A stretch of 64,000 bases of DNA from an uncultured Candidatus Rokubacteria bacterium (GTDB lineage Bacteria; Methylomirabilota; Methylomirabilia; Rokubacteriales; DASRDR01). Location: NCBI GenBank assembly GCA_963708025.1, contig CAVPSB010000014.1, positions 64,001 through 128,000 on the forward strand. Reading direction: 5' to 3'. Position numbers and translations under genes: made by a program. The notes beneath the pieces are model-generated. The model was not told the DNA's origin and made no database searches. It was given only the letters and a program-made list of their open reading frames with translations. Each line of letters starts with the position of its first letter. Within the stretch, counting starts at the first letter, position 1. This document shows, in pieces, positions 2 through 15,168 of this stretch.

Positions 2-820
2 ATCGACCGATACCTCCTGCTCGAACGGACGGCCCGATATGGGGTGACCGAGCACTTCACGGCTCGTGACACTCGGCTCGGCCGCCTGGTCACTCTGGAG
101 GCGAGACCGAAGGAGCCGGGGGAGAATGGGAAGGGGCGCTCGGCTGTCCTGCGCGCGGCATCAGAAGCTTGGGCCAGTCTTGATCACCCGAATGTCGTCC
201 GACTCCACGACTTCGGCGAGACTGCCGACTGGTACTATCGCGCGCTCGATCTACTGGACGGCACGGATCTGCGCCGCGTGCTGAACGACCGGATCCGATG
301 GCCGCTTGCCAAGACGCTGTCTACCATCGGGCAAGTGTGCGAAGGGGTGGAGCACATCCATCGATCCGGCATCGTTCACCGCGACATCAAGCCGGCCCAC
401 ATCTTCCTTCCGTCGCCGGGCGGCGTGAAGATCATCGGCTTCGGCGCCGCGATCAGGGTGTCCGGCCGCGAGGGTGGCTCACCGGAGCTCGCTGGAACGT
501 TGCGGTACATCCCGCCCGAGCAAGCGCGCGGGCAGGTTGACCCGCGATCGGACATGTTTGCCGTCGGCGCCGTGCTCTATGAGCTGTTGGCGCTCCGGCC
601 AGCGTTCGATGTCGATGATCGTTCGCTCGAAGACGCGATCTCTCTGCTGATTCGGAAGGACCGGATGGCGTCTCCCCCGACGCTCACGGATCTCGATGCG
701 GCCATTCCGTCGGAGCTGGCCGCGATCGTCCATCGTGCCATTCAGTTGGAGCCCGAAAGGCGATTCCGAGACATGGCCGAGATGCGGAGCCAGCTGCAAG
801 CGCTCCGGCTCGACACGTGA
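2..820 (+). CDS. Ser/Thr protein kinase-like domain, probable pseudokinase; 5' end lies outside the window
   Basis: LDHPNVVRLHD, IVHRDIKP, GTLRYIPPEQ and DPRSDMFAVG motifs; the frame is open to the window edge (IDRYLLLERT...); VAIK, DFG and the Gly-loop are degenerate. Confidence 0.85.
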   Translation: MDRYLLLERTARYGVTEHFTARDTRLGRLVTLEARPKEPGENGKGRSAVLRAASEAWASLDHPNVVRLHDFGETADWYYRALDLLDGTDLRRVLNDRIRWPLAKTLSTIGQVCEGVEHIHRSGIVHRDIKPAHIFLPSPGGVKIIGFGAAIRVSGREGGSPELAGTLRYIPPEQARGQVDPRSDMFAVGAVLYELLALRPAFDVDDRSLEDAISLLIRKDRMASPPTLTDLDAAIPSELAAIVHRAIQLEPERRFRDMAEMRSQLQALRLDT

Positions 821-880
821 CGCGCGCTCGGTCAGACGACCCGGATCGGTGCTGGCAACGGGTCGGCGAAGGCACGGGCT

Positions 881-3800
881 TCACGGAGCCAGGTCCACGT
901 CGGCGGCGTCCCGGCCGGCCAGGCGGCGGTAGCCTGGCCCGCGATCGAAGAACGGGAGCCGGCTGCGCGCCGCGCGCATCCGCGCCCGCAGGGCGGCGGT
1001 AGCGCCCGCGTCGAGTCGGGGCTCGCCGTCCTCGCCCGCGAGGACCACCACCCCGTACTCCTCGCGAGCGGCGCGCTCCGACACCTTGCCCTGCGCCACG
1101 TCGAGGAGGACGAGCGGGGGCTCGCGCTCGAGTGGATCGCCCCAGCCGCCGCCGCCCGTCGTCTCCACGCGCACGAGAGTCCCGGCCGGGATCGGCTCGT
1201 CGTCGACCAGCCCCGGCAGGACGCGCTCGCCCGGTCCGCCGGGATCCACCGTGACGCGGAAGGGCGCTCCCGCCCGGCCGCCCTTGAGCCCCCAGCAGGC
1301 GAGGATCGAGCGGTCGGCCATCGACATGAAGTAGCCGTCGCAGAGCGTCCGGAACTCCTTCAGGTAGCCGAGCCCGCCGCGCCGCAGACCCGCGCCGCCG
1401 GAGTCGACGGCCAGCGCCAGCCGCTCGACCCGCAGCGGGAAGCGAGTCTCGGTGAACTCGACGGGCAGGTTCTTGCTGTCCGGTACGACGTGGACGATGT
1501 CCTCGCCGTCGGCGTAGGACCGCCCGCCCGACCCGCCTCCGAGCACCTCGCGCATCAGGTAGAACTCGCCGCCCGGGTCCACCCCGTGGAACGCCGGTGT
1601 AGCGGATCGTCTCCTGGTCGGCGGGCATCCGGCCGTTCGTCGCCTTGGCGAGCGCCCCGGCCAGGACGCCCAGGAGGCGCAGGATGACGAAGGTCCGGGC
1701 GTTGGTCGGCGCCGGGAAGACTGGCGTCAGCAGCGTGCCCGGCGGCGGGAACCGCATCTCCAGCAGCGGCACCACGCCCTCGTTGACGTCCAGCTCGGCC
1801 ATCCGCTCCGGGGTGTCGGCCAGGTTGCGCAGGATCGGGCGCCAGCCACTTCTTGAGGAAGCACGCCGTCGGCGTAGTCGCCGGCGTGGTTGATCGGACC
1901 CTTGGCCTGGGGGCTCGTGCCGGCGAAGTCGAGAACCAGCCGGTCCCCGGTCTTGGTCAGCGTGATGCGCTGGGCGTGGAGCCGGGGCGGGTCGACGCCG
2001 TCGTGCTCGGCGTAGTCCTCCCAGGCCCAGGTGCCGTCGGGGATCTGGGCCAGGCACTCGCGCCGGAACGTCTCGGTCGTCCGGGCGAGGATCGCCTCGA
2101 AGCACGCCTCCACCTGCGCCGTCCCGTACCGGCCGAAGAGCGCGGCGAGCCGGCGCGCGCCCTCAGGCGACAGGCGGAGCACTCGCGTCGAGGTCCGCCG
2201 CGCAGGCTGTCGGGCAGGCGCGAGTTCCGGGTCATGATGCGCAGCACGTCCGTGTTGGGGCGGCCGGCGTCGTAGAGCTTGACCGGCGGGACCATCAGGC
2301 CCTCCTCGTGGACGCTGGTCGCGTGCGACGGCATCGAGCCGGGCACGGCCCCGCCGATGTCGTCGTGGTGGCCGAAGGCCTGGACGAACGCGACGACCCG
2401 GCCGTCCTGATGCGGATCGAACACCGGCACGGTGACGCAGAGGTCCGGCAGGTGCCCGATCCCGCCCTCCGACTCGTAGACGTCGTTGTGGAAGAACACG
2501 TCGCCGGGACGCATGGTCTCCGGCGGGAAGTCCCGCACCACCGGCTGGACGAGCGACGAGTAGGAGCGACCGGTGAGCTTGCGGCAGCGCCGGTCGTGGA
2601 TGCCGGCGCGGAAGTCGCGGGCTTCCCGGATCATCGGCGAGCGCGCGGTCCGCTCGATGGCGGTCTCCACCTCGGCCTCGACCGAGGCCAGACTGCCCTG
2701 GACGATCTGGAGGACGATGGGATCGGCCGCGACCGTCTCGGAGCCCGGGGTGCGCTCGGCCGCCGGCGGACGGCCGTCCACCCGGGACAGGATCAGGTTC
2801 GCGAAGCGATCCACCTCGACCCGCTGGCCGGGAAAGACCACCGTGGTGGCGCCGAACTCCTCGACGATCGCCGGGCCGGCAAGCCGGTCGCCGGGCCGGA
2901 GCCGGCCCCGGTCGTAGACGGGGCACGCGACCTCGCGCCCGTCGAACACCACGCCCCGCGTGCCCGCGCGGGCGCGCTCCGCCTGGCCGTCCCCGGCGGG
3001 GGTGGCGCAGGGCGCCGGCCGTCTCGCCAGCCCGATGCCGACCACCCGCAGGTTGACCCACTCGACGGCGTGGCGGCCGGCGGCCTCGCGGTAGCTGTAC
3101 CCGTAGCGCTGCTCGTGGGCGGCGTGGAAGCGCTCGACCGTCTCGGCGGCTCGCGCGGCATCCAGCTCGCCGGCCGGCAGCTCCACGGTCACCTCCCAGG
3201 CCTGGCCGAAGTACCGGAGGTCGGCCAGGCGGACGAAGCGCCGGGCCGGCTCCGGGACCCCCTCGCGGTCCAGCGCCTCGCGGGCGCGGGCCTCGAGTCG
3301 CGCCAGGTGGGCGTCGGCGAGCGCGTGGTCCAGCCGATCGTGCCGCTGGACGCAGGTCTGGACGTAGTCGTTCTTGAGGTCGACCATCAGGAGGCCGAAG
3401 GCCGACACGGTCCCCGGCGACGCCGGGATCAGCGCCGCCCGGAGCCCCAGCAGGTCGACCAGGCGGCCGGCGAGGAGCGGACCGGAGCCGCCGAAGGCGA
3501 CCAGCGTGTAGTCGCGCGGGTCCAGGCCGCGCTTGACGCTCATCTGCTGGATGGCGTTCGCCTGGTTCCAGGCCGCGATCTCGAGGATGCCTTCCGCCGT
3601 CTGCCCGGGGCCGAGTCCCAGCTCGGCGGCCAGACCCTCGATCCCTTTTCGGGCGAGGTCGGCCGACAGCGGGACCTCGCCGCCGAGGAGGCGCGGCGGG
3701 ATGCGGCCCAGCATGAGCTGGGCGTCGGTGACCGTGGGCTGCGCGCCGCCGCGGCCGTAGCACATCGGGCCCGGATCGGCGCCCGCGCTGCCGGGCCCGA

Positions 3801-4830
3801 CCTTCAGGCCGCCGTCGGGGGCGCGCCAGGCGATCGAGCCGCCCCCGGTCCCCACCGTCACCAGGTCGATCATCGGCACCTTGACCGGGAAGCGCCCGAC
3901 GGCGCCGTCGGAGGTGAGGCCCGGCTCGCCCCGCTCGACCAGGCAGACGTCGGTGCTGGTCCCGCCGGCGTCCATGGTCAGGATGCGCTCGAAGCCGGCG
4001 GAGGTGGCGAGGAAGGCCGCCCCGAGGGCGCCGGCGGCGGGCCCGCTCAGGATCGTCGTGATCGGGTGGCGCACCACCTCGCGCGCGGAGATCACGCCGC
4101 CGTTGGACTTCATGACGTAGAACGGCACGCCGGCGCCGAGCTCGGCGTCCAGGCGGGTCCGGATCGACGCCACGTAGCTGGCCACGCGGGACTTGACGAA
4201 GGCGTCGACCAGGGTCGTCATCGTGCGCTCGTACTCGCGGTACTCCGGCCACACCTCGGACGAGAGCGAGACGTGGGCCCCCGGGTGCTCCTCCTCGAGC
4301 ACCGCGCGCATCCGCTGCTCGTGGGCCGGGTTGGCGTAGGCGTGGAGGAAGCTCACGCCGATCGACGTGATGCCCTGGCGCTGGCACCACCGCGCCACCT
4401 CGCGGGCCGCCGCCTCGTCGAGCTCGCGGAGCACCTCGCCGCGATGGCTCAGGCGCTCGGGCACCTCGCGGACGCGATGGAGCGGCACGATCCGGTCGGG
4501 TTTCACCCAGAAGTAGGAGTTCCCGTAGCCCTGGGGGACGCTCTGTCGCGCGATCTCCAGGACGTGGCGAAACCCTTCGGTCGTCACCAGCCCGAGGTCG
4601 GCGAACCGCTCCTCCAGGAGCGCGTTCGTCGCCACGGTCGTCCCGTGGCAGACCGCGCTGACCTCGTCCGCGCCCGCCAGGCGGCGGATCTTGCGGAGCC
4701 CCTCCAGCACGGCGAGGGACGGGTCGGCGGGCGTGGACGGCGTCTTGGTCGCGAAGACCTCGCCGGTCGCCTCGTCCACCGCGACCACGTCGGTGAACGT
4801 GCCCCCGGTGTCGATCCCGATCCGAAACAC
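881..4830 (-). CDS. Fused hydantoinase A/B (5-oxoprolinase family) ATP-dependent amidohydrolase; frameshifted near 2160-2195, 1840-1855 and 1590
   Basis: N-terminal RIGIDTGGTFTD, HGTTVATN, SGPAAG, DAGGTSTD, GPGSAGADPGP, then HyuB motifs HLPDL, HHDDIGG and TGGGGWGDP spread over ORFs 1957-4935, 1727-4390, 684-2105 and 881-1582; GTG at 4830 with GGGAGG upstream. Confidence 0.88.
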
Positions 4831-4831
4831 T

Positions 4832-4970
4832 GTTCGAGACCTCCCGCCTACCCCCCCAGCCCCCCTCCGTTTGATCGGATCGCCGGGACGGCTCGGTCCT
4901 GCGGCCCTCGCGGCGTCCCGCCCTCCGGCGGCCACCGGGGGGAGGGGGGGGCCTGAAGACCCGACTCCTT
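4832..4970 (+). repeat. Family A palindromic C/G-rich repeat, copy 1, with a family C hairpin inserted in its loop
   Basis: ACCTCCCGCCTACCCCCCCAGCCCCCCTCC...CCACCGGGGGGAGGGGGG matches the copies at 16713, 27246 and 54868. Confidence 0.85.
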
Positions 4971-4975
4971 GCCTC

Positions 4976-6004
4976 TCAGCGGAGCGTCCGGGAGAGGTCC
5001 CAGACGTCGTGCGTGTAGGCGGCCGGCTCGGCCGGCTTCTTGATCACGCCGAACTTGAGCGCGATGTCCGCGGTGCGCTTGAAGGCCTCGGGGTCCATCT
5101 TGCCCGCCGGCGTCTTGGGCGCCGGGGGGCCCCAGACGAGCTTGTTGATCTCGGCCATCATCCAGGCCTGGTGCGGCTTGCCGAGCACCGGGCTCTCCTT
5201 CAGGACCAGGTCGACGCAGGCGCCGGCGTTGTCCCGGCAGAACTCCCACCCCTTGAGCGATGCCCGCAGGAAGCGGGCGGCGGTCTCCTTGTTCTTGCCG
5301 GCCCGGAGCCAGTCGGCGCGCGTGAAGATCCCGTCCTCGAGCATGGCCGTGCCCTCGGCGTTGAAGTCGATGACGACCAGGTCCTCGGGCTTCACCCCGC
5401 CGTCCAGCACCTGCTTGTACTCGTTGTAGGTCATGGCGGCCGCCGCGTCGACCTGCTTCTGGAGCAGGAGGTTCATGTCGAACGGCTGCTGCACGAGCGT
5501 CAGGTCCTTCTGGGGATCGATCTTGTACTTGGCCAGGGTGGCCAGCAGCGCGAACTCGTTGCCGCCGAACCACACCGCCACCTTCCGGCCCTTGAGGTCC
5601 GCCGCCGTCTTGATGCCCGAGGTCTTGAAGGCGAGCTGGCGCATGCCGCTGTACGCGAACACCTGGCCGATGTTCACGAGCGGCACCCCTTGCTCGCGCG
5701 CGGAGAGCAGGCTCGGCAGCCAGTCGAGGCCGAACTCGGCGCCCCCGCCGGCCACCACCTGCTCGGGGACGATGTCCGGTCCGCCGGGAATGATCGTCAC
5801 ATCGAGATTCTCGGCGGTGTAGAAGCCGCGGGTCTTCGCGGCGTAGTAGCCCGCGAACTGCGCCTGGGTCACCCACTTGAGCTGGAGCCGCACCTTGGTG
5901 GCCTGGGCCGCGGCCGGCGCCGGCCACGCCGCTCCCAGGGCCACCATCACGCCGAGCGCCAGCCCCATCGTCCGTAGTCTCACGGTCGTCCGTCGCGCCA
6001 TCAC
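4976..6004 (-). CDS. ABC transporter substrate-binding protein, NMT1/THI5 (SsuA-like) family
   Basis: Signal peptide; LQLKWVTQAQFAGYYAA; AAMTYNE. Confidence 0.9.
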   Translation of the reverse strand: MMARRTTVRLRTMGLALGVMVALGAAWPAPAAAQATKVRLQLKWVTQAQFAGYYAAKTRGFYTAENLDVTIIPGGPDIVPEQVVAGGGAEFGLDWLPSLLSAREQGVPLVNIGQVFAYSGMRQLAFKTSGIKTAADLKGRKVAVWFGGNEFALLATLAKYKIDPQKDLTLVQQPFDMNLLLQKQVDAAAAMTYNEYKQVLDGGVKPEDLVVIDFNAEGTAMLEDGIFTRADWLRAGKNKETAARFLRASLKGWEFCRDNAGACVDLVLKESPVLGKPHQAWMMAEINKLVWGPPAPKTPAGKMDPEAFKRTADIALKFGVIKKPAEPAAYTHDVWDLSRTLR

Positions 6005-6038
6005 CGATTCCTCCCGACGTCACGTGGGTTTCGGTTCG

Positions 6039-6809
6039 TCACGCCCGCCCCTGCTCCCGCTCCGCCCGCCAGGGGACGGCGAGCCGCTCGACCAGCGCCA
6101 CCACCGCGTAGAAGGCGAGCCCGAGGAGGCAGGCGACGAGGATCGCCGACCAGGCCTGGCGGGTCTGGAAGAGGCTCGCCGTGCTCTTGATGTACACGCC
6201 CAGCGACTTCATGGGGCCGCCGAAGAACTCGCTCACGACCGCGCCGATCATGGCCAGCGTGGTGCAGGCCCGGAACGCGGTGAACATGAACGGCACGCTG
6301 TGCGGCAGGCGGAGCTTGAGGAAGACCTGCCACTCGGAGGCCGCGCAGCTCCGCATCAGCTCCAGGCTGCGGGGGTCGACGGAGAGCAGCCCGCGCAGCG
6401 TGCCGATGAAGGTAGGGAAGAAGGTCATCACGGTCACGATGGCGATCTTCGACCCGGGGCCGATTCCGAACCAGACGATCGCCAGCGGCGCCAGCGCCAC
6501 GATCGGGACGGAGGCCGAGGCGATGGCGTAGGGCAGGACGAGGCCGGCGAAGGCCGGCGAGCGGCTCGATAGCATCGCCGCCAGCAGTCCCAGGCCGCAG
6601 CCCAGCCCGTAGCCGGCCAGGGCCTCGCCGAACGTGTAGAGGCTCGCCTCGAGCAGGACCGGATAGCTCTGGCGGAGGCTGGCCACGATGACGTGCGGGG
6701 CGGGCAGGAGGTAGAACTCGATCGCGAACGCGAAGACGAAGGCCTCCCAGGCGGCGATGCCGAGGACGAAGACGCCGAGAGCCGGCAGGTTCTCCCGGAG
6801 CCGGCGCAC
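6039..6809 (-). CDS. ABC transporter permease (SsuC/TauC-like)
   Basis: Hydrophobic; LAPLAIVWFGIG, KLRLPHSVP, GAVVSEFFG. Confidence 0.9.
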   Translation of the reverse strand: MRRLRENLPALGVFVLGIAAWEAFVFAFAIEFYLLPAPHVIVASLRQSYPVLLEASLYTFGEALAGYGLGCGLGLLAAMLSSRSPAFAGLVLPYAIASASVPIVALAPLAIVWFGIGPGSKIAIVTVMTFFPTFIGTLRGLLSVDPRSLELMRSCAASEWQVFLKLRLPHSVPFMFTAFRACTTLAMIGAVVSEFFGGPMKSLGVYIKSTASLFQTRQAWSAILVACLLGLAFYAVVALVERLAVPWRAEREQGRA

Positions 6810-6812
6810 CGG

Positions 6813-7631
6813 CTACGCCCCCGCTCCGTCCGGGCCGGGGCCGGCGGCGAGGCCGGGGTCCTCGACGAGGTGCTCGCGCACGGTGGTGACCAGCTCGAAG
6901 AACCGCGGCAGGGCGCGCGTCTTCTCGCTGCGGGGGCGCGGCAGGTCCACGTCCACCACCCGCTCGATGCGGCCCGGGCGGGGGCTCAGCACCACCACCC
7001 GGCTGGAGAGGAAGACCGCCTCCGCGATGCTGTGGGTCACGAAGAGCACGGTGGCGCCGGTCTCGCCGCAGACGCTCAGCAGCTCCAGGTTGAGGCGCTC
7101 GCGCGTCATCTCGTCCAGCGCCCCGAACGGCTCGTCCATGAGCAGGATCGACGGGCTGGTCACCAGCGCCCGGGCCATGGCCACCCGCTGCTGCATCCCG
7201 CCCGAGAGCTGCCACGGGAAGTGACGGCGGAAGGCGTCGAGCCCGACCAGGCGCAACAGGGTCCGGACGCGCTCGTCCTGCTCGCGCCGCGGCCAGCCCA
7301 TCACCTCCAGCGGCAGGCGGACGTTCGCCTCGGCCGTGCGCCAGTCGTAGAGCACGGGTGCCTGGAAGACGATGCCGTAGTCCCGGCCGAGACGCGCCTG
7401 GTGGGGCGACTTCCCGTTCACGGTGACCGTGCCGCCCGACGGCGCGACGAGGTCGCCGACGATCCGCAGGAGGGTGGACTTGCCACAGCCGGACGGGCCG
7501 ATCAGCGAGACGAACTCACCCCGCTCGATGGCCAGCGACACGTCGCGGAGGGCTTCGGTCGCGCCGGCCCGGCTCGGGAACGTCTTGCCCACGCCGTCGA
7601 GCGCGATCATCGGGAGGCGCGACATCGGCAC
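6813..7631 (-). CDS. ABC transporter ATP-binding protein (TauB/SsuB-like)
   Basis: Walker A GPSGCGKST, LSGGMQQR, LLMDEPFGALD. Confidence 0.95.
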   Translation of the reverse strand: MPMSRLPMIALDGVGKTFPSRAGATEALRDVSLAIERGEFVSLIGPSGCGKSTLLRIVGDLVAPSGGTVTVNGKSPHQARLGRDYGIVFQAPVLYDWRTAEANVRLPLEVMGWPRREQDERVRTLLRLVGLDAFRRHFPWQLSGGMQQRVAMARALVTSPSILLMDEPFGALDEMTRERLNLELLSVCGETGATVLFVTHSIAEAVFLSSRVVVLSPRPGRIERVVDVDLPRPRSEKTRALPRFFELVTTVREHLVEDPGLAAGPGPDGAGA

Positions 7632-7634
7632 GTC

Positions 7635-8468
7635 CTACGCGGACCGCCCGGCCGGCTGCCAGGCCACGCAGCGCCGCTCGACGGCGGCCACGGCGTGGTA
7701 GAACGCGATCCCGAGCAGCGCCGAGACCAGGATGGCCGCCCACAGGTTGGCGGGCCGCCAGTTGTAGTACTGGGCCGCGTTGATGATGACGACGCCCATC
7801 CCGAACCGGCTCCCCACCGGCAGCTCCCCGATGATGGCGCCGACGACGCTGGCCGTCGCGGAGAGGCGGAGTGCGACGAAGAGGTACGGGAGGGCCGCCG
7901 GGAAGCGGAGCTTCAGGAACACCTGCCGCCGGGTCGCGGCGAGGGCCCGCATCAGGGCGAGGGCGTCGGGGTCGACCGACCGGAGGCCCCGCAGCATGTT
8001 GACCGTCACCGGGAAGAAGGTGAGATACGCGGCGATGACCGCCTTGGACACCCACGAGGTGCCGAGCCACACCACCACCATCGGCGCCACCGCCAGGATC
8101 GGCACCGTCTGGGACACCATCACGTACGGGAGGAGCCCGCGCTCCAGGAGCCGCGAGCCCGCGAAGAGGATGGCCAGGGCCAGTCCCGCCGTCGCGCCAA
8201 AGGCGAAGCCGGCCAGGCTCTCGAGGGCGGTGTAGGCGGCGTTGTGGGCCATGATCAGGAGCCACGGGCTGCCGTCGGCGCCCTCTCGCAGGAACTCGCC
8301 GAGGATCTCGTGGACGTGCGGGAGCTGGTAGGTCGGGATCGCGAAGAGCGCCTTGCTCCCTTCCCACACCGCGACCAGGGCGGCCGGCACGGCGAGCGCG
8401 AGGAGCCGGCGGTTACGGCCCGGGCGCCCACCCCCGCCGGGCTCGGGGCCGCGCGTGCTTGCGGGCAT
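7635..8468 (-). CDS. ABC transporter permease (SsuC/TauC-like)
   Basis: C-terminal part of ORF 7635-12152; SQTVPILAVAP, KLRFPAALP, GAIIGELP. Confidence 0.88.
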   Translation of the reverse strand: MPASTRGPEPGGGGRPGRNRRLLALAVPAALVAVWEGSKALFAIPTYQLPHVHEILGEFLREGADGSPWLLIMAHNAAYTALESLAGFAFGATAGLALAILFAGSRLLERGLLPYVMVSQTVPILAVAPMVVVWLGTSWVSKAVIAAYLTFFPVTVNMLRGLRSVDPDALALMRALAATRRQVFLKLRFPAALPYLFVALRLSATASVVGAIIGELPVGSRFGMGVVIINAAQYYNWRPANLWAAILVSALLGIAFYHAVAAVERRCVAWQPAGRSA

Positions 8469-8539
8469 GCGCCGAGTGTAGCGCATCGCGGCCGCCCGGT
8501 CCTGTCGGCGGGCGCCACCCGTGGGAGTCGTCGCCGAGG

Positions 8540-9919
8540 CTACCGGCCCCGGAGGAGTGATGGCCGATACGAATCGGTGACGTGGCGCGCCATTCTCGTG
8601 AAGAGATCGGGGAGCCGGGCGGGCTGGGGCTCGGGGGGAAGGTCGCTCAGCGCGGACTCGAACCACCGGAGATAGGTCTTCTCGATCCGGGCCGAGTCCC
8701 AGTGCTCCCGGGCGTAGCGGGCGGCTTCGGCGCCCAGCCGGTGCCGGAGCGGAGGGTCCGCGAGCAACCGGCGCAGAGCCTCCGCCATGGCCTCGGGATC
8801 CGCGGCGGGGACGAGGAGGCCGCGCTCGCCGTGGGCCACGGTCTCGCCGAGACCGCCGACAGCAGTGGCGACGACCGGGGTCCCGCAGGCCTGAGCCTCG
8901 GCGGCGATGAGGCCCGCGTTCTCCGCCCGGGCCGCGTGGACGTAGACGTCGGCGGCCTGGAGGTACCGGGCCAGCGTCTCCTGGGGCTGAAACGGCAGGA
9001 ATCGGAGCCGCGTGTTGCCCACGACCTGCTCGGGCGCCGCCTCGCCGAGGCCGATGAACAGGATCCGCTGCCGGGGGAGCCACTCCGCCAGGTGACGGAC
9101 GGCCGCCTCGATCGTCGCGGAATCCTTGTAGGGGTTCGAGCGGGCCCGGTAGGCCCCGAAGACGAGGATGCGCGCGTCCTGCGGCAGGCCGAGCGCGGCG
9201 CGCACCGCCTCGCGCTCCGCCGGGCGAAAGGTCCGGCGATCGATGGGACACGGGATCACCTGGAGGTCCTGGATGGCGGGCGCCAGGATGGACCGCGCCA
9301 CGGAATCCCGAAGCCACCGCGTCGGGGTGGCGACGCGAAGACGCACCCCCCCGTAAACGTGCTTCTTGCGAGCCCAGTTCACGTCGCTGGCGTCCCGGGA
9401 GATCGCCGGCGGCAGGGAGAGATCGGGACAGCTCCCGCAGCCCGTCTCCCAGCCCGCACACCCGACGGGATACGCGCAGTGCCCCGTCATCGCCCAGAAG
9501 TCGTGGAGGACCAGGAAGGTCGGGATCTGTCGTGAAAGCGATGCCAGCGCGCGGAGGTCGAAGTAGCCGCCGTGGAGGTTGTGGAGCAGGAGCACGTCGG
9601 GCGGCGAGCCGGTGAGGGTTGGCAGGTGCGTCGTGAACGGAAAGTGGAAGTCCTCGAGGCCCTGCTCGCTGTCTCGGCACTTGGCGCGCCGGAGCTCCTC
9701 CTGGAACCCGGGGCTGGCATACGGCCGGTAGTCGAGATGCGGGCTCGAATGGAAGGGGAGGACGCGCGGATCGGCGGTTCGCTTGTCGCCGACGACGAGC
9801 CAGGACTCGAGGCCGCGGCGCTCGAAGCCCTTGAACAGATTCCAGGCGACCCGCTCGGCTCCGCTGCCCTCGTCCGCCGTGTTCACCGAGACGATCTTGC
9901 GCGCGGTCAGCCGGATCAC
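8540..9919 (-). CDS. Glycosyltransferase family 4 (GT-B, WcaC-like)
   Basis: GAERVA, LLLHNLHGGYF, LHDFWAMTGHC, ENAGLIAAEAQACGTPVV; start uncertain (9919 or 9955). Confidence 0.88.
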   Translation of the reverse strand: MIRLTARKIVSVNTADEGSGAERVAWNLFKGFERRGLESWLVVGDKRTADPRVLPFHSSPHLDYRPYASPGFQEELRRAKCRDSEQGLEDFHFPFTTHLPTLTGSPPDVLLLHNLHGGYFDLRALASLSRQIPTFLVLHDFWAMTGHCAYPVGCAGWETGCGSCPDLSLPPAISRDASDVNWARKKHVYGGVRLRVATPTRWLRDSVARSILAPAIQDLQVIPCPIDRRTFRPAEREAVRAALGLPQDARILVFGAYRARSNPYKDSATIEAAVRHLAEWLPRQRILFIGLGEAAPEQVVGNTRLRFLPFQPQETLARYLQAADVYVHAARAENAGLIAAEAQACGTPVVATAVGGLGETVAHGERGLLVPAADPEAMAEALRRLLADPPLRHRLGAEAARYAREHWDSARIEKTYLRWFESALSDLPPEPQPARLPDLFTRMARHVTDSYRPSLLRGR

Positions 9920-10042
9920 GCCCCGACGATACCCGACCCGTGGGCGCGGCGCCAAGGAATCGGCGGCGTCTGCTATCTGCTCCCTCGCCCTCCCGGTGCC
10001 GGCGGGCGGGCTGGACCCTGGGGGGGGTCGAGCGGGCGGCGA

Positions 10043-11302
10043 TCAGCCGGAGCTCGGGCCCAGATCGCGCGCCCCGGCGGCGAGGGGCCGAACGGCGAAG
10101 CCGCCGTGGCGGACCAGCTCGAGGAACGTCGCCTCGTCCATGAGATAGAAGCCGTCCGCTGCCCCCGCCGCGGCCCGCACCGCCTCGACGATCTTGCGGA
10201 TCGTGTCGGACTCGGCCGTGAGCCCGTTGGCGAACAGGTGGTAACGGACCGTGTACTCGTTGCACTTGCGTCCGATCGACACGTGCAGCCGGTTGCCGAC
10301 GAGACGCGGAGGATACACCACGCTCTCTTCGAGGACACCCCGGGTCGCCCGCCCATAGACGATCTGCTGGATGTCTTCGGTCTCGGGAATGCAGAACGCG
10401 CGATCGCCGACGACCGGCTTGTGCGTACTGATCGCGACGCCGGTGGCCCGCGCCACGAAATCCGACAGGCTTTTCAGCCGCGTGAGGTCGATCCCGGTGG
10501 AGATCCCCGCGTGCATTGGCAACGCGACGGCGATCTCCTCCAGCGCGAGGAGTCCCGCGAGCTCGCCGAGCCCGTTGACCGTCGTCTGGAGACCCGTGGC
10601 GCCTCCGAGGGCCGCGGCGACGCCGTTCGCCAGCGCCATCGAGGAGTGGTTGTGACAGTGCACTTGCAGCGGTCGGTCGGTCCAGGTCCTCACCTGCTCG
10701 ATCAGGTAGCGGAGGCCATACGGCGAGATGACGCCCCGCGAGTCGGCGATCGTGTACTCGTCGCACGTCGGCTCGACGGCCTCGATGATCTCTCTGAGGA
10801 ACTCGGGCCGGGTGCGGGTCGCATCCATGGCCATGAAGTTGGTGTGGAGTCCGCGCTCCCTGGCGACGCCGGTGAGGTGGCGGCTCTTGGCGAGGACGTC
10901 CCGGCCGCCGATGCCGGCCGGCAGCGAGCGGTCGTTGACCCATACCAGAATCGTGACGCCCCGCAGACCGATTCGAGCGGCGGTCTGGATCTCCTCCTCG
11001 GTCTTCACGAACGCGCCGACCCGGACCGGAAGCCCCAGGGCGACGACCTGTTCGGCCTCGCGCACGTCCTCGGGAGACGGGCGCGGTGAGTTGCCCAGCA
11101 CCGAGATCTCCGCCACCCCGATCTCGGCCAGCCGCCTGGCGATCTCGAGCTTGTTCTCGCGCGAGATGCTGACGCCGGCCATCTCCTCGCCGTCGCCCTC
11201 GAGCGTGAGATCGTGGATGAACGCGGCACCACGCTGGCCCGGCGGGCCCACCTCGTCGGGCAGCCAGTTGTAGGGACTCCCGTATCTCGCGAACTCGGTC
11301 AC
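10043..11302 (-). CDS. DRE-TIM metallolyase homologue (homocitrate synthase/AksA-like) with a non-canonical active site
   Basis: SPYN N-terminus, KLEIARRL, DATRT, IADSRG, VHCHNH, TTVNGLGE, KPVVGD; no IPMS regulatory domain. Confidence 0.8.
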   Translation of the reverse strand: MTEFARYGSPYNWLPDEVGPPGQRGAAFIHDLTLEGDGEEMAGVSISRENKLEIARRLAEIGVAEISVLGNSPRPSPEDVREAEQVVALGLPVRVGAFVKTEEEIQTAARIGLRGVTILVWVNDRSLPAGIGGRDVLAKSRHLTGVARERGLHTNFMAMDATRTRPEFLREIIEAVEPTCDEYTIADSRGVISPYGLRYLIEQVRTWTDRPLQVHCHNHSSMALANGVAAALGGATGLQTTVNGLGELAGLLALEEIAVALPMHAGISTGIDLTRLKSLSDFVARATGVAISTHKPVVGDRAFCIPETEDIQQIVYGRATRGVLEESVVYPPRLVGNRLHVSIGRKCNEYTVRYHLFANGLTAESDTIRKIVEAVRAAAGAADGFYLMDEATFLELVRHGGFAVRPLAAGARDLGPSSG

Positions 11303-11332
11303 CGATCGATTCCTCGCCCGCGCCCGGCGGTG

Positions 11333-12286
11333 TCAGCGCCCGATCTGTCCGGAATGCGCCATCGCGCCGAGGAGATTCAGGATCAGCCGGCTGGCCAGCA
11401 GGCTCGTCATGTTCTGATGGTCCTTGCCCGGCGCGATCTCGACCATGTCGAAGCCGACGATCCGCCCCTTGGCGGCGATCCCCCGGAGCAGGTTGCTCAC
11501 CTCGTAGTACGTGAGCCCGCCGAACTCGAGCGCGTTGATGCCGGGAGCGATCGCCGGGTCCAGGGCGTCGGTGTCCAGGCTGATGTAGTAGGCGGAGGCG
11601 TCCGGCACCCGCCGGAGGATCTCCTTGACGCCGGCCTCGTGCAGCTCCTCGGCGCGCACCCGGATGCTGCCGAACGCCGCCGCGTCGTCGACCTCCCGCT
11701 GACGGGCGCTGCCCACGCTGCGCAGGCCGATCTGGATCATCGAGGTGACCCAGGGCAGCTCCGACGCCCGGCGCATGGGGCTCGACAGCCCGTCGTGGAT
11801 CCCGTTCACCTCGTCGCGGAAGTCGAGGTGGGCGTCGATGTGGACGACGCAGATCGGCCCCCGGCCTTCGTAGGCGCGGATGATCGGGACCGTGGTCGCG
11901 TGGTCGCCGCCGAGCACGATGGGGACCGCCCCCCGCGCCAGGATCTCCTTCAGCACCGCGGTCCCCATCCGGATGTTGGCGTCGTACTCGCCGGCGGCCT
12001 CGAAGACGTCGCCGCAGTCGGCGATCTGGACCTTCCGGCCCGCGAACAGCTCGGAGCCGAAGTCCATGTCGTAGTGGGTGAGAAAGTTCGGGTAGCGGAG
12101 CGAGGCCTCGCGGATCGCGCTCGGCGCCCAGCTCGAGGGCTGGCGTGACCACTCGAGCGTGTAGGGGACGGTGAACGGGTAGGCGATGATCGCCACGTCG
12201 GCCTGGAGCGCATCCAGGCTGTCGCAGCGGGGCGCGTTGATGAAGCTGGGGCGCCCGATCGGGACCGGCACGGTCTTCGGCTGCAT
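11333..12286 (-). CDS. Ureohydrolase (agmatinase/arginase family)
   Basis: GGDHA, HIDAHLD, SLDTDALDP, GFDMVEIAP. Confidence 0.9.
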   Translation of the reverse strand: MQPKTVPVPIGRPSFINAPRCDSLDALQADVAIIAYPFTVPYTLEWSRQPSSWAPSAIREASLRYPNFLTHYDMDFGSELFAGRKVQIADCGDVFEAAGEYDANIRMGTAVLKEILARGAVPIVLGGDHATTVPIIRAYEGRGPICVVHIDAHLDFRDEVNGIHDGLSSPMRRASELPWVTSMIQIGLRSVGSARQREVDDAAAFGSIRVRAEELHEAGVKEILRRVPDASAYYISLDTDALDPAIAPGINALEFGGLTYYEVSNLLRGIAAKGRIVGFDMVEIAPGKDHQNMTSLLASRLILNLLGAMAHSGQIGR

Positions 12287-12356
12287 GGAACTCGGCTCCT
12301 TTCAGCCGGGCGGGCCGGCATGCCCGCCGCGGGGATCGGCTGACGGCTCGGACGGA

Positions 12357-13982
12357 TCAGGTGCGCCGGAGGCGGAGGTTGAAGTTCCGCACCTCGACGA
12401 ACTGGAGGGGATGCGGCGTCCACTCGACGTACTTCTGGAGCCCGTAGTCGTCGTAGGGCTGGAGCACCACGATCCACGGGTTGTGCTCCAGGAAGATCCG
12501 CGTCATCTTCCGGTACGCCTCGTCCCGGAACTTCTCGTCGATGCTGAAGCGCGCGGCCTCGCCCAGCTCGTCGAACTCGGGGTGTCGCCAGTAGTCCTGC
12601 AGGCCGCCCGGCGCCAGGAGCCGCCACATCATCCCGTCGGGATCCGAGAGCGTGGAGGCGGGGTCCGACCACCACAGCCCCTTGAACGAGCGCTCCCGGT
12701 TCTTCTGGGCCCGCACCGAGTACTCGATCACCTCCACGACGGCGTTGACCCCGATGTCCTTCCACATGGCGGCGATCGCCTCGGACGTCGCCTTCTCGTT
12801 GAGGGTGTAGCCGGACGTCTCGATGTAGACGGGCTCTCCCCGGTACCCGGATTTCTTGAGGCGCTCCCTGGCCTCGCGGGGGTCGTACGGGAGCGGCGGC
12901 AGCGAGGGGTCGTAGTGGTTGTCGCTCTTCAGGATCGGCCCGTTGGGGACGGCGGCCCGTCCCCGCCACAGCTCCTTGACGATCGCCTCACGGTCGACCG
13001 CCAGGGACAGGGCCTGCTTCACGAGCGGGTTGTTGAGCGGGGGCACCTTGGAGTTCACGGCCATCACGTAGAGGACCGACGAGAGGGTGGACACCGATCG
13101 GGTGGTCGGGTGCTGGTTCACGCGATCGAGATGGTCGGGGGGCAGGAGCATCATGAGGTCGATCTCGCCCTTCAGGAGCGCCGCGATGCGGGCGGCCGTC
13201 TCCGGGATCGGGCGGAGGACCACGCGGTCGACATCGGGCCGCCCTCCCCAGTAATCGCCGAACGCGTCCAGGACGGTCCGGTCGTCCTTGGTCCACGACA
13301 CGAAGCGGAGCGGTCCGGTCCCGATCGGCTGGGCGTTGAAGGTCTCGGGTCCCACGCGCTCCACGTACCGCTTCGGCACGATCTGCCCCCCGTAGGCGGC
13401 CAGCCGGGCCGGGAGCAGCGGGTCGGGTTTCTTGGTGTGAACCACGAGGGTGTAAGGATCGGGGACGTCCATCCGGTCGACGGTCGTGTACACCGTGGCG
13501 ACCAGCGTCTTGAAGCTGGGATTGTAGGTCCGGTCGATCGAGAACCGCGCATCCTCGGCGGTGAAGGCATCCCCGTTGTGCCACTTGACGCCCTGGCGCA
13601 GCTTGAACTGCCAGGTCGTCGGGGCGACCCGCTTCCACTCCGTCGCGAGACTGGGATAGAGCTTCCCATCGGGGCGACGGGTGATCAGGGTGTCGAAGAT
13701 GTTGAAGGTCACCCGGATCTCGTTCGACGCCGTGCTGAGGTGGGGGTCGAACCTCGCCACGTCACCCACCTGGGCGAAGGTCACGTCGCGCTTCTGTGTG
13801 GTCTGGGCCGCGCTGCCGCGTGGCGCTACCGCGTCCAGGAGGGCCGTCGCCGGCCCGGTGGCCGCGCCGAGTCCCAGCAGCGTCGCGCGCCGGAGGAACT
13901 CCCGGCGGGGGAGCCCCCCGGCACCCAGGGCTTCCGCGAATCCTTCGGCCTCGGTCTCGGGGATGCGTCGAAGGTCAGCCAT
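12357..13982 (-). CDS. ABC peptide/nickel-type (SBP_bac_5) substrate-binding protein, Tat-exported
   Basis: RREFLRR twin-Arg signal; LRQGVKWHNGDAFTAED, PIGTGP. Confidence 0.9.
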   Translation of the reverse strand: MADLRRIPETEAEGFAEALGAGGLPRREFLRRATLLGLGAATGPATALLDAVAPRGSAAQTTQKRDVTFAQVGDVARFDPHLSTASNEIRVTFNIFDTLITRRPDGKLYPSLATEWKRVAPTTWQFKLRQGVKWHNGDAFTAEDARFSIDRTYNPSFKTLVATVYTTVDRMDVPDPYTLVVHTKKPDPLLPARLAAYGGQIVPKRYVERVGPETFNAQPIGTGPLRFVSWTKDDRTVLDAFGDYWGGRPDVDRVVLRPIPETAARIAALLKGEIDLMMLLPPDHLDRVNQHPTTRSVSTLSSVLYVMAVNSKVPPLNNPLVKQALSLAVDREAIVKELWRGRAAVPNGPILKSDNHYDPSLPPLPYDPREARERLKKSGYRGEPVYIETSGYTLNEKATSEAIAAMWKDIGVNAVVEVIEYSVRAQKNRERSFKGLWWSDPASTLSDPDGMMWRLLAPGGLQDYWRHPEFDELGEAARFSIDEKFRDEAYRKMTRIFLEHNPWIVVLQPYDDYGLQKYVEWTPHPLQFVEVRNFNLRLRRT

Positions 13983-14092
13983 GGCTCAGTCTCCTCCCAC
14001 GGGAAGTCGTCTTCCCATTCTCCTCGTCCCGACTGGCGGCCAGCATATCCCACTCCTGGCACCGCCCGCCACTGCACCGGGCGGCGCGCGCG

Positions 14093-14121
14093 TTGACGCG
14101 GCTCCGGTGCTGGACTACGCT
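14093..14121 (+). promoter_or_regulatory. Putative sigma70 promoter
   Basis: TTGACG-N17-TACGCT, 43 bp upstream of the ATG at 14164. Confidence 0.5.
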
Positions 14122-14163
14122 GGCGTCCGACCCGGCGCGCGCCGGAGAACCGGGGGGCATGCC

Positions 14164-15168
14164 ATGGATGAGCGAGCCTCGCGAAGGGGCGCCGCGACCG
14201 TTCTGGGACTGATTCTCGCGCTCGCGGGGCTCGCGGGCTCACCGGCGGGCGACGTGCGCCCGGCCGCCGCCGCGACGCCGCCCCGGGTCCTGATCGTCGG
14301 GCCACTCGACGGCTACGGCGCGCTGGTGGCCGGCGTCTCGGAGGGGCTCCAGGCGGGCGGCTTCAAGAGCGCGGCCGACATCCAGCTCGACGTGGTGAAC
14401 ACCCGCTCGATGGACGAGGCCCGGGCCGCCATCGCCGGGGCGGTCGGGCGCGGCCTCGACGCCGTCGTCACCGTTTTCGGCCAGGCGACCCAGGCCGCCC
14501 GCGAGGGGGCGCCGGGAGTGCCCATCGTCTTCTGCCCGGTCGCCGATCCCGTCGCGGCCCGGCTGGTGGCCTCGGCCGAGGCTCCCGGAGGGAATCTCAC
14601 GGGTGTCGCCAGCGCCGATGCCGAGGCCAGCCTGCGCCGGCTTCGCGCGTTCCTGCAGGTCGTGCCCGGGCTCCGGCGGCTCGGCGTCCTCTTCGATCCC
14701 GGCTTCCCTCCCGACCGGGTCCAGCTCGCCAACCTGGAGCAGGCCGCGCCGTCTCTCGGGCTGACGATCGCGCGACGCCCGATCGCCGAGGCCGAGGATG
14801 TCCCGCGCGCTCTCGTGGCCCTCGATCAAGAGCACGTCAACGCGGTCTTCGTCCTCCGGGAAGCCTGGCTCCGCCGGTCGGGGACCGAGATCGGCAAGGC
14901 CGCGCTCGCCCACCGGCTGCCGCTCCTGGTCGGCGACCCGGAGCTGGCGATGTTTCCGGGCGTGGTGGCCGCGATCGGGCCGAACCAGGAGCAGATGGGC
15001 CGGATCGCGGGCGAGATGGTGGCGCGGATCCTGAGAGGCGCCCAGCCGGGCAGCCTGCCGGTCGAGCACCCGCCCTTCGATCTGGTCCTCAATCTGAAGT
15101 CGGCGGCGGAGCTCGGTCTCGCCATCCCGGTGGGCGTCATCGCCCGGGCTGCGCGGCTGATCCGCTGA
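14164..15168 (+). CDS. ABC transporter substrate-binding protein (ABC_sub_bind family), orphan
   Basis: Signal peptide; PIVFCPVADPV, PGGNLTGV, RILRGAQPGSLPVE, LVLNLKSA. Confidence 0.85.
   Translation: MDERASRRGAATVLGLILALAGLAGSPAGDVRPAAAATPPRVLIVGPLDGYGALVAGVSEGLQAGGFKSAADIQLDVVNTRSMDEARAAIAGAVGRGLDAVVTVFGQATQAAREGAPGVPIVFCPVADPVAARLVASAEAPGGNLTGVASADAEASLRRLRAFLQVVPGLRRLGVLFDPGFPPDRVQLANLEQAAPSLGLTIARRPIAEAEDVPRALVALDQEHVNAVFVLREAWLRRSGTEIGKAALAHRLPLLVGDPELAMFPGVVAAIGPNQEQMGRIAGEMVARILRGAQPGSLPVEHPPFDLVLNLKSAAELGLAIPVGVIARAARLIR

Follow-up and report, generated by a model that had tools for sequence, protein, structure and literature searches.

What does an enzyme do when it has kept the fold of a homocitrate synthase (HCS) and lost most of the residues that carry out the synthase reaction? 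This question is raised by a gene in a 64,000-nucleotide stretch of DNA from an uncultured Candidatus Rokubacteria bacterium (contig CAVPSB010000014.1; hereafter the window, with positions counted from its first letter), which encodes, at 10043..11302 on the minus strand, a 419-residue DRE-TIM (HMGL-like) protein, as judged from its open reading frame (ORF), Pfam, NCBIfam, and AlphaFold2/Foldseek. The protein belongs to a clade, marked by LEGDGEE and PETEEIQ motifs, that is under purifying selection, and it probably performs a different, putative breakdown reaction. An earlier note, made from the sequence alone, had described an intact HMGL-like ORF with altered active-site motifs, and direct translation recovered each quoted motif where it had been placed. 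The ORF is unbroken over 419 codons from a GTG start at 11302, which lies 8 nt 3′ of a Shine-Dalgarno-like GAGGA (11311..11315, minus strand, from reading the sequence) and is backed by homologues that begin at the equal aligned position in an alignment of 46 sequences; the stop TGA of the upstream gene occupies 11335-11333. The G+C fraction near the gene (0.68-0.75) is similar to that of the remainder of the window. Pfam detected a single HMGL-like domain (PF00682, 7.8e-42) and no LeuA_dimer regulatory domain, in line with the earlier description.

We mapped the active site by translation and by aligning nine clade members with eight canonical synthases (alignment A2); all motifs below are on the minus strand. 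The first motif, DLTLEGDGEE (residues 31-40; 11183..11212; also supported by clade conservation), reads D31-L-T-L-E35-G36-D37-G-E39-E40 where canonical enzymes have D-T-T-L-R-D-G-E-Q, so that the Arg before the metal Asp is replaced by E35 and an inserted G36, and the Gln of RDGEQ, which positions acetyl-CoA, by E40. EISV (residues 65-68; 11099..11110) has S67 where IEAG has its Glu (the “E” of DRE), with a two-residue insert after this site. These are the replacements of the Arg, Gln, and Glu of Claisen chemistry that the earlier note had read, and the alignment adds one further loss: in MAMDATR (residues 157-163; 10814..10834; within MAMDATRT, residues 157-164), D160 and R163 are retained and M159 stands for the Glu of xEDAxR (Glu227 in MAMS), as the clade alignment A1 described below also indicates. 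In DSRG (residues 187-190; 10733..10744), S188 replaces the Thr of DTxG. In HCHNH (residues 215-219; 10646..10660; translation and clade counts), H219 replaces the Asp of HxHND. GLGELAGL (residues 244-251; 10550..10573; also from clade counts) contains GELAGL (246-251), a GERAGN motif with both Arg and Asn replaced. The acidic segment KPVVG...IPETEDIQ (residues 295-312; 10367..10420) replaces HESGIH, with an insert of ~9 residues, and PETEDIQ lacks the HESGIH histidines.

The metal site appears to be kept. The Asp of GDGEE, D37, lines up with the LRDGEQ Asp, next to the Arg, and D37, H215, and H217 all align to canonical ligands and are invariant in A2, which makes H215 and H217 the predicted metal histidines. 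The claim that the Asp and His-x-His ligands survive thus holds, with the correction that the ligand Asp, taken earlier as D31, is D37 in the alignment. In terms of the Asp-Arg-Glu triad that gives DRE-TIM its name, Asp is present as D37, Arg has become E35, and Glu has become S67; the enolization pair (Glu of xEDAxR and His of HESGIH) is likewise absent, with M159 and PETEDIQ at these sites. Judged by alignment, the window protein is a structural DRE-TIM member that has the fold and the metal histidines and lacks two of the three signature residues.

How severe these losses are can be gauged from mutagenesis of MAMS (PMC11532901). There, the metal is held by Asp90, His288, and His290, with Arg89 preceding Asp90; the 2-oxo acid is held by Arg89 and Thr257, the latter hydrogen-bonding the substrate carboxylate; and Gln93 and His388 bridge to CoA. 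The mutants R89A/K/Q, Q93A/N, E227A/D, and H388A/D/E/Q were inactive, T257S stayed active, and the Arg was described as invariant and essential across DRE-TIM metallolyases. All four positions at which mutation kills MAMS in these data are changed in the window protein (Arg, Gln, the Glu227 equivalent M159, and His), and the only tolerated change, Thr to Ser, is the conservative one found here (S188).

These replacements bear directly on the simplest explanation, namely that the gene encodes an ordinary homocitrate, isopropylmalate, or citramalate synthase of the AksA/NifV/LeuA/CimA type, as it was annotated automatically. The top family and structure matches are indeed such synthases: the best solved relative by sequence is the Sulfolobus HCS 6ktq (3.3e-34), followed by isopropylmalate synthase (IPMS), Thermus HCS, MAMS, and citramalate synthase (CMS), and the source names of clade members (“isopropylmalate/homocitrate/citramalate synthase” or “homocitrate synthase NifV”) agree. 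However, the best synthase models scored at 184-207 bits against cut-offs of 463-517 (NF002085, IPMS subfamily, 207.2 versus 517; TIGR02660, nifV HCS, 196.3 versus 462.9; TIGR02090, archaeal LEU1, 184.1 versus 484.75), the fungal/archaeal HCS model TIGR02146 at 159.8 versus 413.55, and every NCBIfam synthase model fell far under its curated cut-off. Two canonical LeuA-like genes, with ORFs of 535 and 625 aa, moreover lie elsewhere in the genome, and no leucine, lysine, or nif genes lie around the window gene. With the residues essential in MAMS all replaced, an ordinary synthase is close to refuted, and the public labels isopropylmalate, homocitrate, or NifV synthase for the clade genes are almost certainly wrong. 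ESM Atlas returned generic HMGL-like clusters only, and no paper on the clade was found in the literature searched, a body that mostly excludes subscription journals.

The comparison with IPMS, HCS, CMS, and MAMS is one of a shared frame and a changed center. Like them, the window protein combines a TIM barrel with a C-terminal subdomain, collinear over ~380 residues, and has the Asp/His/His site, the DxxG carboxylate-binding turn, the NGxGE and KPxxG motifs, and a predicted homodimer in which a post-barrel segment would reach the partner active site; with AksA/NifV-type HCS it also shares the absence of a regulatory domain. Unlike them, it has other residues for the LRDGEQ Arg and Gln, the IEAG and xEDAxR Glu, the GERAGN Arg and Asn, and the HESGIH histidines, with inserts of one, two, and ~9 residues at three of those sites and an identity of 37% or less, and the context of its clade is catabolic and transporter-linked, whereas theirs is biosynthetic.

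The predicted structure supports the assignment of the fold. An AlphaFold2 model built from 46 clade sequences reached a predicted local distance difference test score (pLDDT) of 90.6 and a predicted template modeling score of 0.89, and its top Foldseek match was HCS 6ktq (1.3e-26), then 6e1j, 2ztj, 3bli, and 3rmj (MAMS, TtHCS, LiCMS, NmIPMS), with probability 1.00. Pfam, AlphaFold2, and Foldseek all point to an HMGL-like TIM barrel with a C-terminal helical subdomain. Prediction of two copies with zinc gave a dimer score of 0.91 (median of three runs) versus 0.00 for the best control, at a mark that was reached by 20 of 30 proteins solved as one-chain pairs and by 1 of 23 solved as single chains; the runs showed at least 93% contact agreement and a partner pLDDT of at least 91, and since HCS and IPMS homodimers have already been solved, this pass may reflect likeness only. 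The predicted interface comprises residues 7-18 (SPYN motif), 36, 40-47 (EEMAG), 218-222, 246-250, and 286-311 (KPVVG...PETED). In the model, residue 296 contacts residues 218-221 and 249 of the partner, and segment 286-311 faces the partner HxH and GE motifs, so that the clade-specific acidic segment of one subunit is placed by the prediction over the metal site of the other. The HESGIH segment of canonical enzymes lies over the metal site of the partner in the same way.

Were these substitutions private to the window protein, they could be taken for decay. They are not. A word-indexed protein search gave 130 matches with an E of 0.001 or better and a listing of the best 120; among these, 89 protein clusters (P0001-P0089) form the clade, with E 9e-83 or better, 40-95% identity, and PF00682 alone, and from P0090 on matches had E 7e-37 or worse, an identity of 37% or less, and, in nearly all, an HCS_D2 domain. 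In alignment A1 (46 clade sequences, 39-89% identical to the window protein), 42 columns are invariant, including D31, L34, E39, E40, M41, A42, G43, H215, H217, N218, G244, G246, E247, G250, P306, E307, and T308, and E35, D37, M159, D160, R163, E309, I311, and Q312 are conserved in at least 90% of sequences. Counted over all 89 clade proteins (12 of them fragments shorter than 380 aa), the Arg-less first motif occurs in 80, PETxxxQ in 84, HxH in all 89, and HxHNH in 76; of the NGxGE motif, the 14 most frequent forms, covering 78 proteins, have L, F, or Y at the Arg position and L, Q, or I at the Asn position. Among 11 sequence pairs, 6 were informative for the ratio of nonsynonymous to synonymous substitution rates (dN/dS), which was 0.164 for the window gene versus that of locus L031 (342 codons) and 0.051, 0.102, 0.094, 0.085, and 0.166 for the others; the remaining 5 pairs were either identical or saturated. 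These values place the clade under purifying selection. Because the whole clade has the substitutions, they are beyond chance, and the proposal of coordinated remodeling rather than decay, for which a conserved clade signature under selection had been suggested as the check, was borne out by the two motif counts and by dN/dS values of 0.05-0.17.

The same data weigh on the possibility that the protein is not a catalyst at all, i.e., that it is a ligand-binding or regulatory transporter partner, or a slowly decaying gene. The protein has lost the Arg, Glu, and His that serve catalysis in its relatives, and the gene seems dispensable for the lineage, as a search of 40 genomes from its family or order gave no match at E 1e-40 or better. 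Against this stand the intact ORF, the low dN/dS, and the invariance of the metal ligands and some 45 further positions across 46 sequences. E35, E39, E40, P306, E307, and T308 are as conserved as the metal ligands, which is expected of an active site and not of a relic. We accordingly consider a noncatalytic role very improbable.

The clade also stands apart from its wider family. A profile search of 1.84 billion representatives returned 11,493 proteins at E 0.001 or better, in which the clade scored above 430 bits, a second tier 270-330 bits, and then came a large set of ~400-aa proteins that match the clade profile from the N-terminal SPYN motif through the C terminus. Among the 150 best representatives, 65 had the Arg and lacked both the Glu and HESGxH, 41 had the Arg and HESGxH, and 10 had an E/D-x insertion for the Arg, with PETxxxQ in only 3 of these 10. 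In a quick maximum-likelihood tree (80 rows, midpoint root only), all 29 clade rows fell on one side of a branch of length 0.75 with SH-aLRT support of 100; EG-type proteins without PETEE (P0124/P0125, P0127, P0126) branched next to the clade, and canonical HESGxH enzymes were nested among Arg-only proteins. The ~400-aa “W-x-SPYNF” DRE-TIM proteins thus resemble the clade in the SPYN motif, length, and C-terminal subdomain, and in that most lack both the xEDAxR Glu and HESGxH (the 65 of 150 above); a few, P0124-P0127 and P0134, share the E/D-x insertion and branch beside it. Unlike the clade, most keep RDGEQ and GERxGN, none examined has PETEEIQ, and they score 200-330 bits to the clade profile versus >430 for the clade. 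A genomic scan for the EG-type sister proteins (alignment A4) was swamped by the HCHNDFG pattern and gave only canonical-looking archaeal and bacterial synthases at 28-37% identity. As a separate observation, P0128-P0268 from the profile search form a large ~400-aa W-x-SPYNF set that keeps RDGEQ, lacks both the xEDAxR Glu and the HESGxH histidines, and in which no characterized member was found; going by their motifs, they are unlikely to be Claisen synthases.

The clade gene is spread thinly over distant hosts. A pattern scan of 185,579 species genomes found 27 loci, in Oculatellaceae and Elainellaceae cyanobacteria, several alpha- and gammaproteobacterial metagenome-assembled genomes (MAGs), and marine single-cell genomes, and metagenomes added 34 further loci; no tblastn match at E 1e-40 or better was found among 72,556 plasmids. 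The source genome, whose assembly has a contamination estimate of 8.18%, holds one copy. This patchy distribution suggests horizontal spread of the gene. A Thermoproteota MAG with several paralogues appears among the source names as well: in this single archaeal MAG (ACFL0D_...), we noted at least five clade members (P0039, P0045, P0049, P0073, P0083) with 54-56% identity to the window protein, which suggests substrate diversification inside one genome.

What the clade enzyme might act on is hinted at by the genes beside it. We called genes in 50 of the 61 loci, dropping 11 metagenome loci shorter than 3 kb and labeling genes via Pfam-annotated cluster representatives, and counted neighbors in the 42 loci with 3 kb or more of flanking sequence, omitting L063 (25% identity). 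An SBP_bac_3 ABC importer was present in 19 of 42 loci, a ureohydrolase, allantoicase, or ureidoglycolate lyase in 15, either these or DDAH in 24, and an epimerase or deacylase in 11, numbers that describe the sample and do not amount to a test, because the loci are kin and some are near-identical (L032/L033, L004/L038, L009/L041). Between the importer ATPase gene and the clade gene there is a 4-bp overlap in L004/L038, L005, and L006, and the clade gene comes 5 bp after the ATPase gene in L034 and L037. This physical coupling is the strongest single fact of the context, and in several loci the importer and the clade gene are all that recurs. A 651-aa ORF in L005 and the protein P0088 raised the possibility of a true ATPase/DRE-TIM fusion, which we rejected: the L005 ATPase is a separate ORF (2862-3680) with a 4-bp overlap, and the 651-aa ORF is an out-of-frame extension. 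P0088, a 291-aa metagenome protein in which the ABC_tran and HMGL-like matches overlap, probably reads through a frameshift across the overlapping ATPase and DRE-TIM genes and is no true fusion.

Beyond this core, the accessory genes vary by lineage (allantoicase, ureohydrolase, DoeB-like deacylase, dipeptide epimerase, PrpB-like lyase, PfkB kinase). In cyanobacteria (arrangement A), a polysaccharide-deacetylase-like gene, an NMT1-type binding protein, and the SBP_bac_3 importer are followed by a dipeptide-epimerase-like gene of the enolase superfamily directly upstream of the clade gene, and then by a PfkB kinase (downstream in L002, L032, and L033); the epimerase matches PDB entry 3iji (N-acetyl-D-Glu-racemase-like) at 7.1e-71 and the NCBIfam model DgcA at 196 bits versus a cut-off of 400. 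Arrangement B consists of importer, clade gene, and PrpB-like lyase (L004/L038), and arrangement C of ureidoglycolate lyase, allantoicase (433.6 bits versus a cut-off of 277.9), importer, and clade gene, with both enzymes in the L007 and L014 operons. In arrangement D, ureohydrolase(s), a DoeB-like AstE/AspA deacylase (282 bits versus a cut-off of 402.7; L009, L011, L041, L042, L055, L056), the clade gene, and the importer occur together. Arrangement E, from marine alphaproteobacteria, runs SDR, ABC1 kinase, SDR, clade gene, MatE, DDAH-like, GGACT, and FAD oxidoreductase, with a ureohydrolase and an amidohydrolase a few kb upstream. As an aside, up to three arginase-family genes and a DoeB-like deacylase flank the clade gene and importer in deep-sea metagenome and alphaproteobacterial loci (L041 at 564-1541, 7811-8803, and 9137-10174; similarly in L009 and L042).

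The importer binding proteins resemble Arg/Gln binders. Their best match was AncQR, a reconstructed Gln/Arg binder (1.5e-32 and 1.2e-30), or, in another case, the “amino acid ABC transporter” protein 6svf (1.3e-29), and the next matches were ArtJ and the Lys/Arg/Orn-, glutamine-, nopaline-, and octopine-binding proteins. In the binders of the A-C type, the Arg of the ITxER motif (R111) is invariant and an Asp (D198) is present in at least 90% (alignment A5); we take these two residues to hold the free alpha-carboxylate and alpha-ammonium of the ligand. We noted in A5 that the linked SBP_bac_3 binders come in two types, one keeping a DD pair at the alpha-ammonium site of amino-acid binders and a second (L009, L010, L020, L021) having Gln-Ser there, which hints at a ligand without a free amine.

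The window itself (arrangement F) has the order SBP_bac_5 protein, ureohydrolase, clade gene, GT4 glycosyltransferase, NMT1-type ABC importer, and hydantoinase A/B gene. The ureohydrolase (11333..12286, minus strand), 30 bp upstream of the DRE-TIM gene, is an arginase-family protein (Pfam Arginase, 1.3e-61) of the agmatinase/guanidino-acid hydrolase-like type: it scored 162.7 bits with TIGR01230, just under the agmatinase cut-off of 174.3, and its closest PDB matches were agmatinase 1wog (1.6e-39) and guanidinobutyrase 3nio (1.1e-30), with guanidinopropionase also among the closest. Its identification as a guanidine hydrolase (GdmH) was unsupported, as “probable agmatinase 2” 7esr matched at 9.8e-24 versus 1.6e-39 for 1wog. 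The binding protein (12357..13982, minus strand), 70 bp upstream of the ureohydrolase, belongs to family 5 of ABC substrate-binding proteins, the peptide/opine/nickel type (Pfam SBP_bac_5, 4.7e-84), and reached no NCBIfam equivalog at its cut-off. A promoter and terminator scan of 8300-14400 gave 0 sites, in a region whose 70% G+C makes such a scan uninformative.

Taken at its best reading, the clade protein is a CoA-independent metal lyase or hydrolase acting on a cationic or nitrogen-rich amino-acid derivative, and we tentatively favor, as the specific form, a lyase-type cleavage of such an imported compound. It would be an active homodimeric metal-dependent DRE-TIM enzyme that has abandoned acetyl-CoA Claisen condensation and serves in the breakdown of an imported arginine- or glutamine-like (cationic or guanidino/ureido-bearing) amino-acid derivative. 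The substrate would chelate the divalent metal at D37, H215, and H217 via its alpha-carboxylate and a neighboring alpha-heteroatom (OH or N), a mode suggested by the retention of S188 and the DxxG turn, with S188 keeping the carboxylate hydrogen bond. Because a Glu stands in the place of the Arg, the heteroatom is likely a hydrogen-bond donor (OH or N) rather than a keto oxygen, and E35, at the site of the enolate-stabilizing Arg of other DRE-TIM enzymes, could act as acid/base toward it. The net acidic gain (E35, E40, E307, and E309 are new, while two Arg and three acidic residues are lost) would suit a cationic group, which E39 and E40 together with E307 and E309 of the partner subunit’s lid may hold. 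The bond beside the chelated carbon (C-N, or C-C) would then be cut in a lyase-type step, so that a small 2-oxo or 2-amino acid stays bound to the metal and a nitrogen-rich fragment is released, which the neighboring ureohydrolase, allantoicase, or DDAH-type enzymes might convert to urea. We infer the roles of E35, E39, E40, E307, and E309, the bond type, and that the substrate is cationic. One step of a lyase or hydrolase kind would account for the ability of importer and clade enzyme to stand alone. The suggestion of the earlier note that the protein takes another, perhaps cationic, substrate or runs another reaction fits the data, since four residues essential in MAMS (PMC11532901) are replaced, the importer resembles Arg/Gln binders, and neighbors are urea-releasing.

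A functional analogy, and no more than that, exists in ureidoglycolate lyase and peptidyl-alpha-hydroxyglycine alpha-amidating lyase, which are metal-dependent and convert an N-substituted alpha-hydroxy acid to glyoxylate and an amide or urea. By this analogy, C-N cleavage could need only a metal-chelated acid and a carboxylate base, with no Arg/Glu/His enolization; the folds are unrelated, and there is no sequence or structural link to the clade protein. Carried further, the clade would be a new DRE-TIM subgroup in which the guanidinium or ammonium of the substrate replaces the deleted Arg, acting as a C-N lyase or by metal-hydroxide attack on the guanidino carbon. In its C-N lyase version (carbinolamine/aminal-type), a guanidino- or ureido-bearing alpha-hydroxy or alpha-amino acid would yield a metal-bound 2-oxo acid plus guanidine, urea, or an amine. 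We regard this bolder proposal as unlikely; if true, the reaction would be new to this fold and would supply a missing step in bacterial breakdown of nitrogen-rich compounds, feeding ureohydrolase, allantoicase, or guanidine/urea-carboxylase-type enzymes.

The neighborhoods also allow a zinc-type hydrolase, in which the 2-His-1-carboxylate metal activates water with E35 as general base, and whose target would be an amide, ureido, or guanidino bond within an N-acyl amino acid or an iso-dipeptide (e.g., beta-Asp-Arg or an N-acyl-diamino acid). The dipeptide epimerase/N-acetyl-D-Glu-racemase-like gene directly upstream in cyanobacterial loci, the DoeB-like deacylase in its six loci, the peptide-type SBP_bac_5 protein of the window, and the minimal conserved unit of importer plus clade enzyme, which suits one hydrolytic step, all speak for it. 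So does a parallel in Pseudomonas aeruginosa, where an Arg-type ABC importer is reported to take up beta-Asp-Arg, alongside an AstE-like dipeptidase (PMC9974463). However, the DoeB-like deacylase, where present, is already a candidate for the hydrolytic step, and the Arg and Asp kept in A-C type binders, which presumably hold a free alpha-carboxylate and alpha-ammonium, argue against N-acylated ligands there. In addition, we know of no hydrolase in the DRE-TIM superfamily. Hydrolysis is in our estimate an improbable choice.

Other chemistry on a metal-chelated acid would be epimerization or racemization, decarboxylation, or, in a route that pairs a hydroxylase with an aldolase, C-C aldol cleavage of a hydroxylated amino or guanidino acid. 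The superfamily does have aldolase and lyase subgroups, and the DmpG/BphI aldolases (1nvm, 4jn6, 4lrs) and HMG-CoA lyase (2cw6) share the fold and metal site of the window protein; like the lyase step proposed above, these enzymes are catabolic and cleave the bond beside a metal-bound oxo or hydroxy acid, the aldolase doing so independently of CoA condensation. Hydroxylases lie nearby in some loci (PhyH in L007, TauD in L020, a Rieske oxygenase in L013/L014, FA_hydroxylase in the marine group), as do the PrpB-like lyase downstream in L004/L038 and the PfkB kinase downstream in its three loci. Yet most loci are without hydroxylases, and the relationship is distant: the PDB matches are weak (4e-5 to 1e-3), and the NCBIfam models gave about 40-56 bits against cut-offs of 229-286 (TIGR03217, 56.1 versus 286; NF004283, 40.5 versus 246). 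These relatives have a different C-terminal domain and keep the Arg that is missing here and that enolate-forming aldolases and lyases need (PMC11532901). We judge this group of reactions a little more doubtful than hydrolysis.

Several observations weigh against the favored lyase cleavage of an imported derivative. The placement of acidic residues near the metal comes from the alignment and the list of predicted interface residues. The window’s linked binding protein is of family 5 and not family 3, the 21 gene-called loci of the marine alphaproteobacterial group have no adjacent importer, and 5 of the 42 loci have none of the counted neighbors. The loci are not independent of one another. 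The accessory genes yield no single pathway, and some neighbors may be unrelated. Finally, no riboswitch or other RNA reached the gathering score in positions 1-26000 of the window or in 9 loci, and no regulator hinted at the ligand.

Some further features of the window deserve mention for their own sake. In the fused hydantoinase A/B (oxoprolinase-like) gene at 684-5043 (minus strand), the Hydantoinase_B half is split among three or more reading frames, with pieces running consecutively in ORFs 1957-5043, 1727-4975, 684-2162, and 881-1726 and several frameshifts within ~700 bp; the gene is either a pseudogene or affected by assembly indel errors. A 1505-aa ORF at 7635-12152 (minus strand) was set aside as a high-G+C artifact in its upstream part, where the glycosyltransferase, DRE-TIM, and ureohydrolase genes use other frames; its C-terminal part is a real permease gene (7635-8516), and naive longest-ORF calling would mask the true genes in this region. 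NMT1/THI5-type binding proteins recur, in the window at 4976-8516 (minus strand, with a NitT/TauT-type ABC importer) and in the cyanobacterial loci L001 (2579-3550) and L032 (1485-2513). Transporters of this type are used for guanidine uptake in some bacteria.

For the superfamily, the finding is a conserved, selected clade that lacks the Arg called “invariant” in DRE-TIM enzymes (PMC11532901) together with the other Claisen residues, and that has gained a conserved acidic set. We regard this finding as real and unusual for the superfamily, and we offer the chemistry as a hypothesis: a familiar scaffold turned to another reaction. The coupling to importers and the urea-releasing neighbors span cyanobacteria, marine and soil Proteobacteria, and an archaeal MAG, and because the gene is coupled to amino-acid importers and travels with urea-releasing enzymes across lineages, the substrate is probably an environmentally relevant nitrogen-rich compound.

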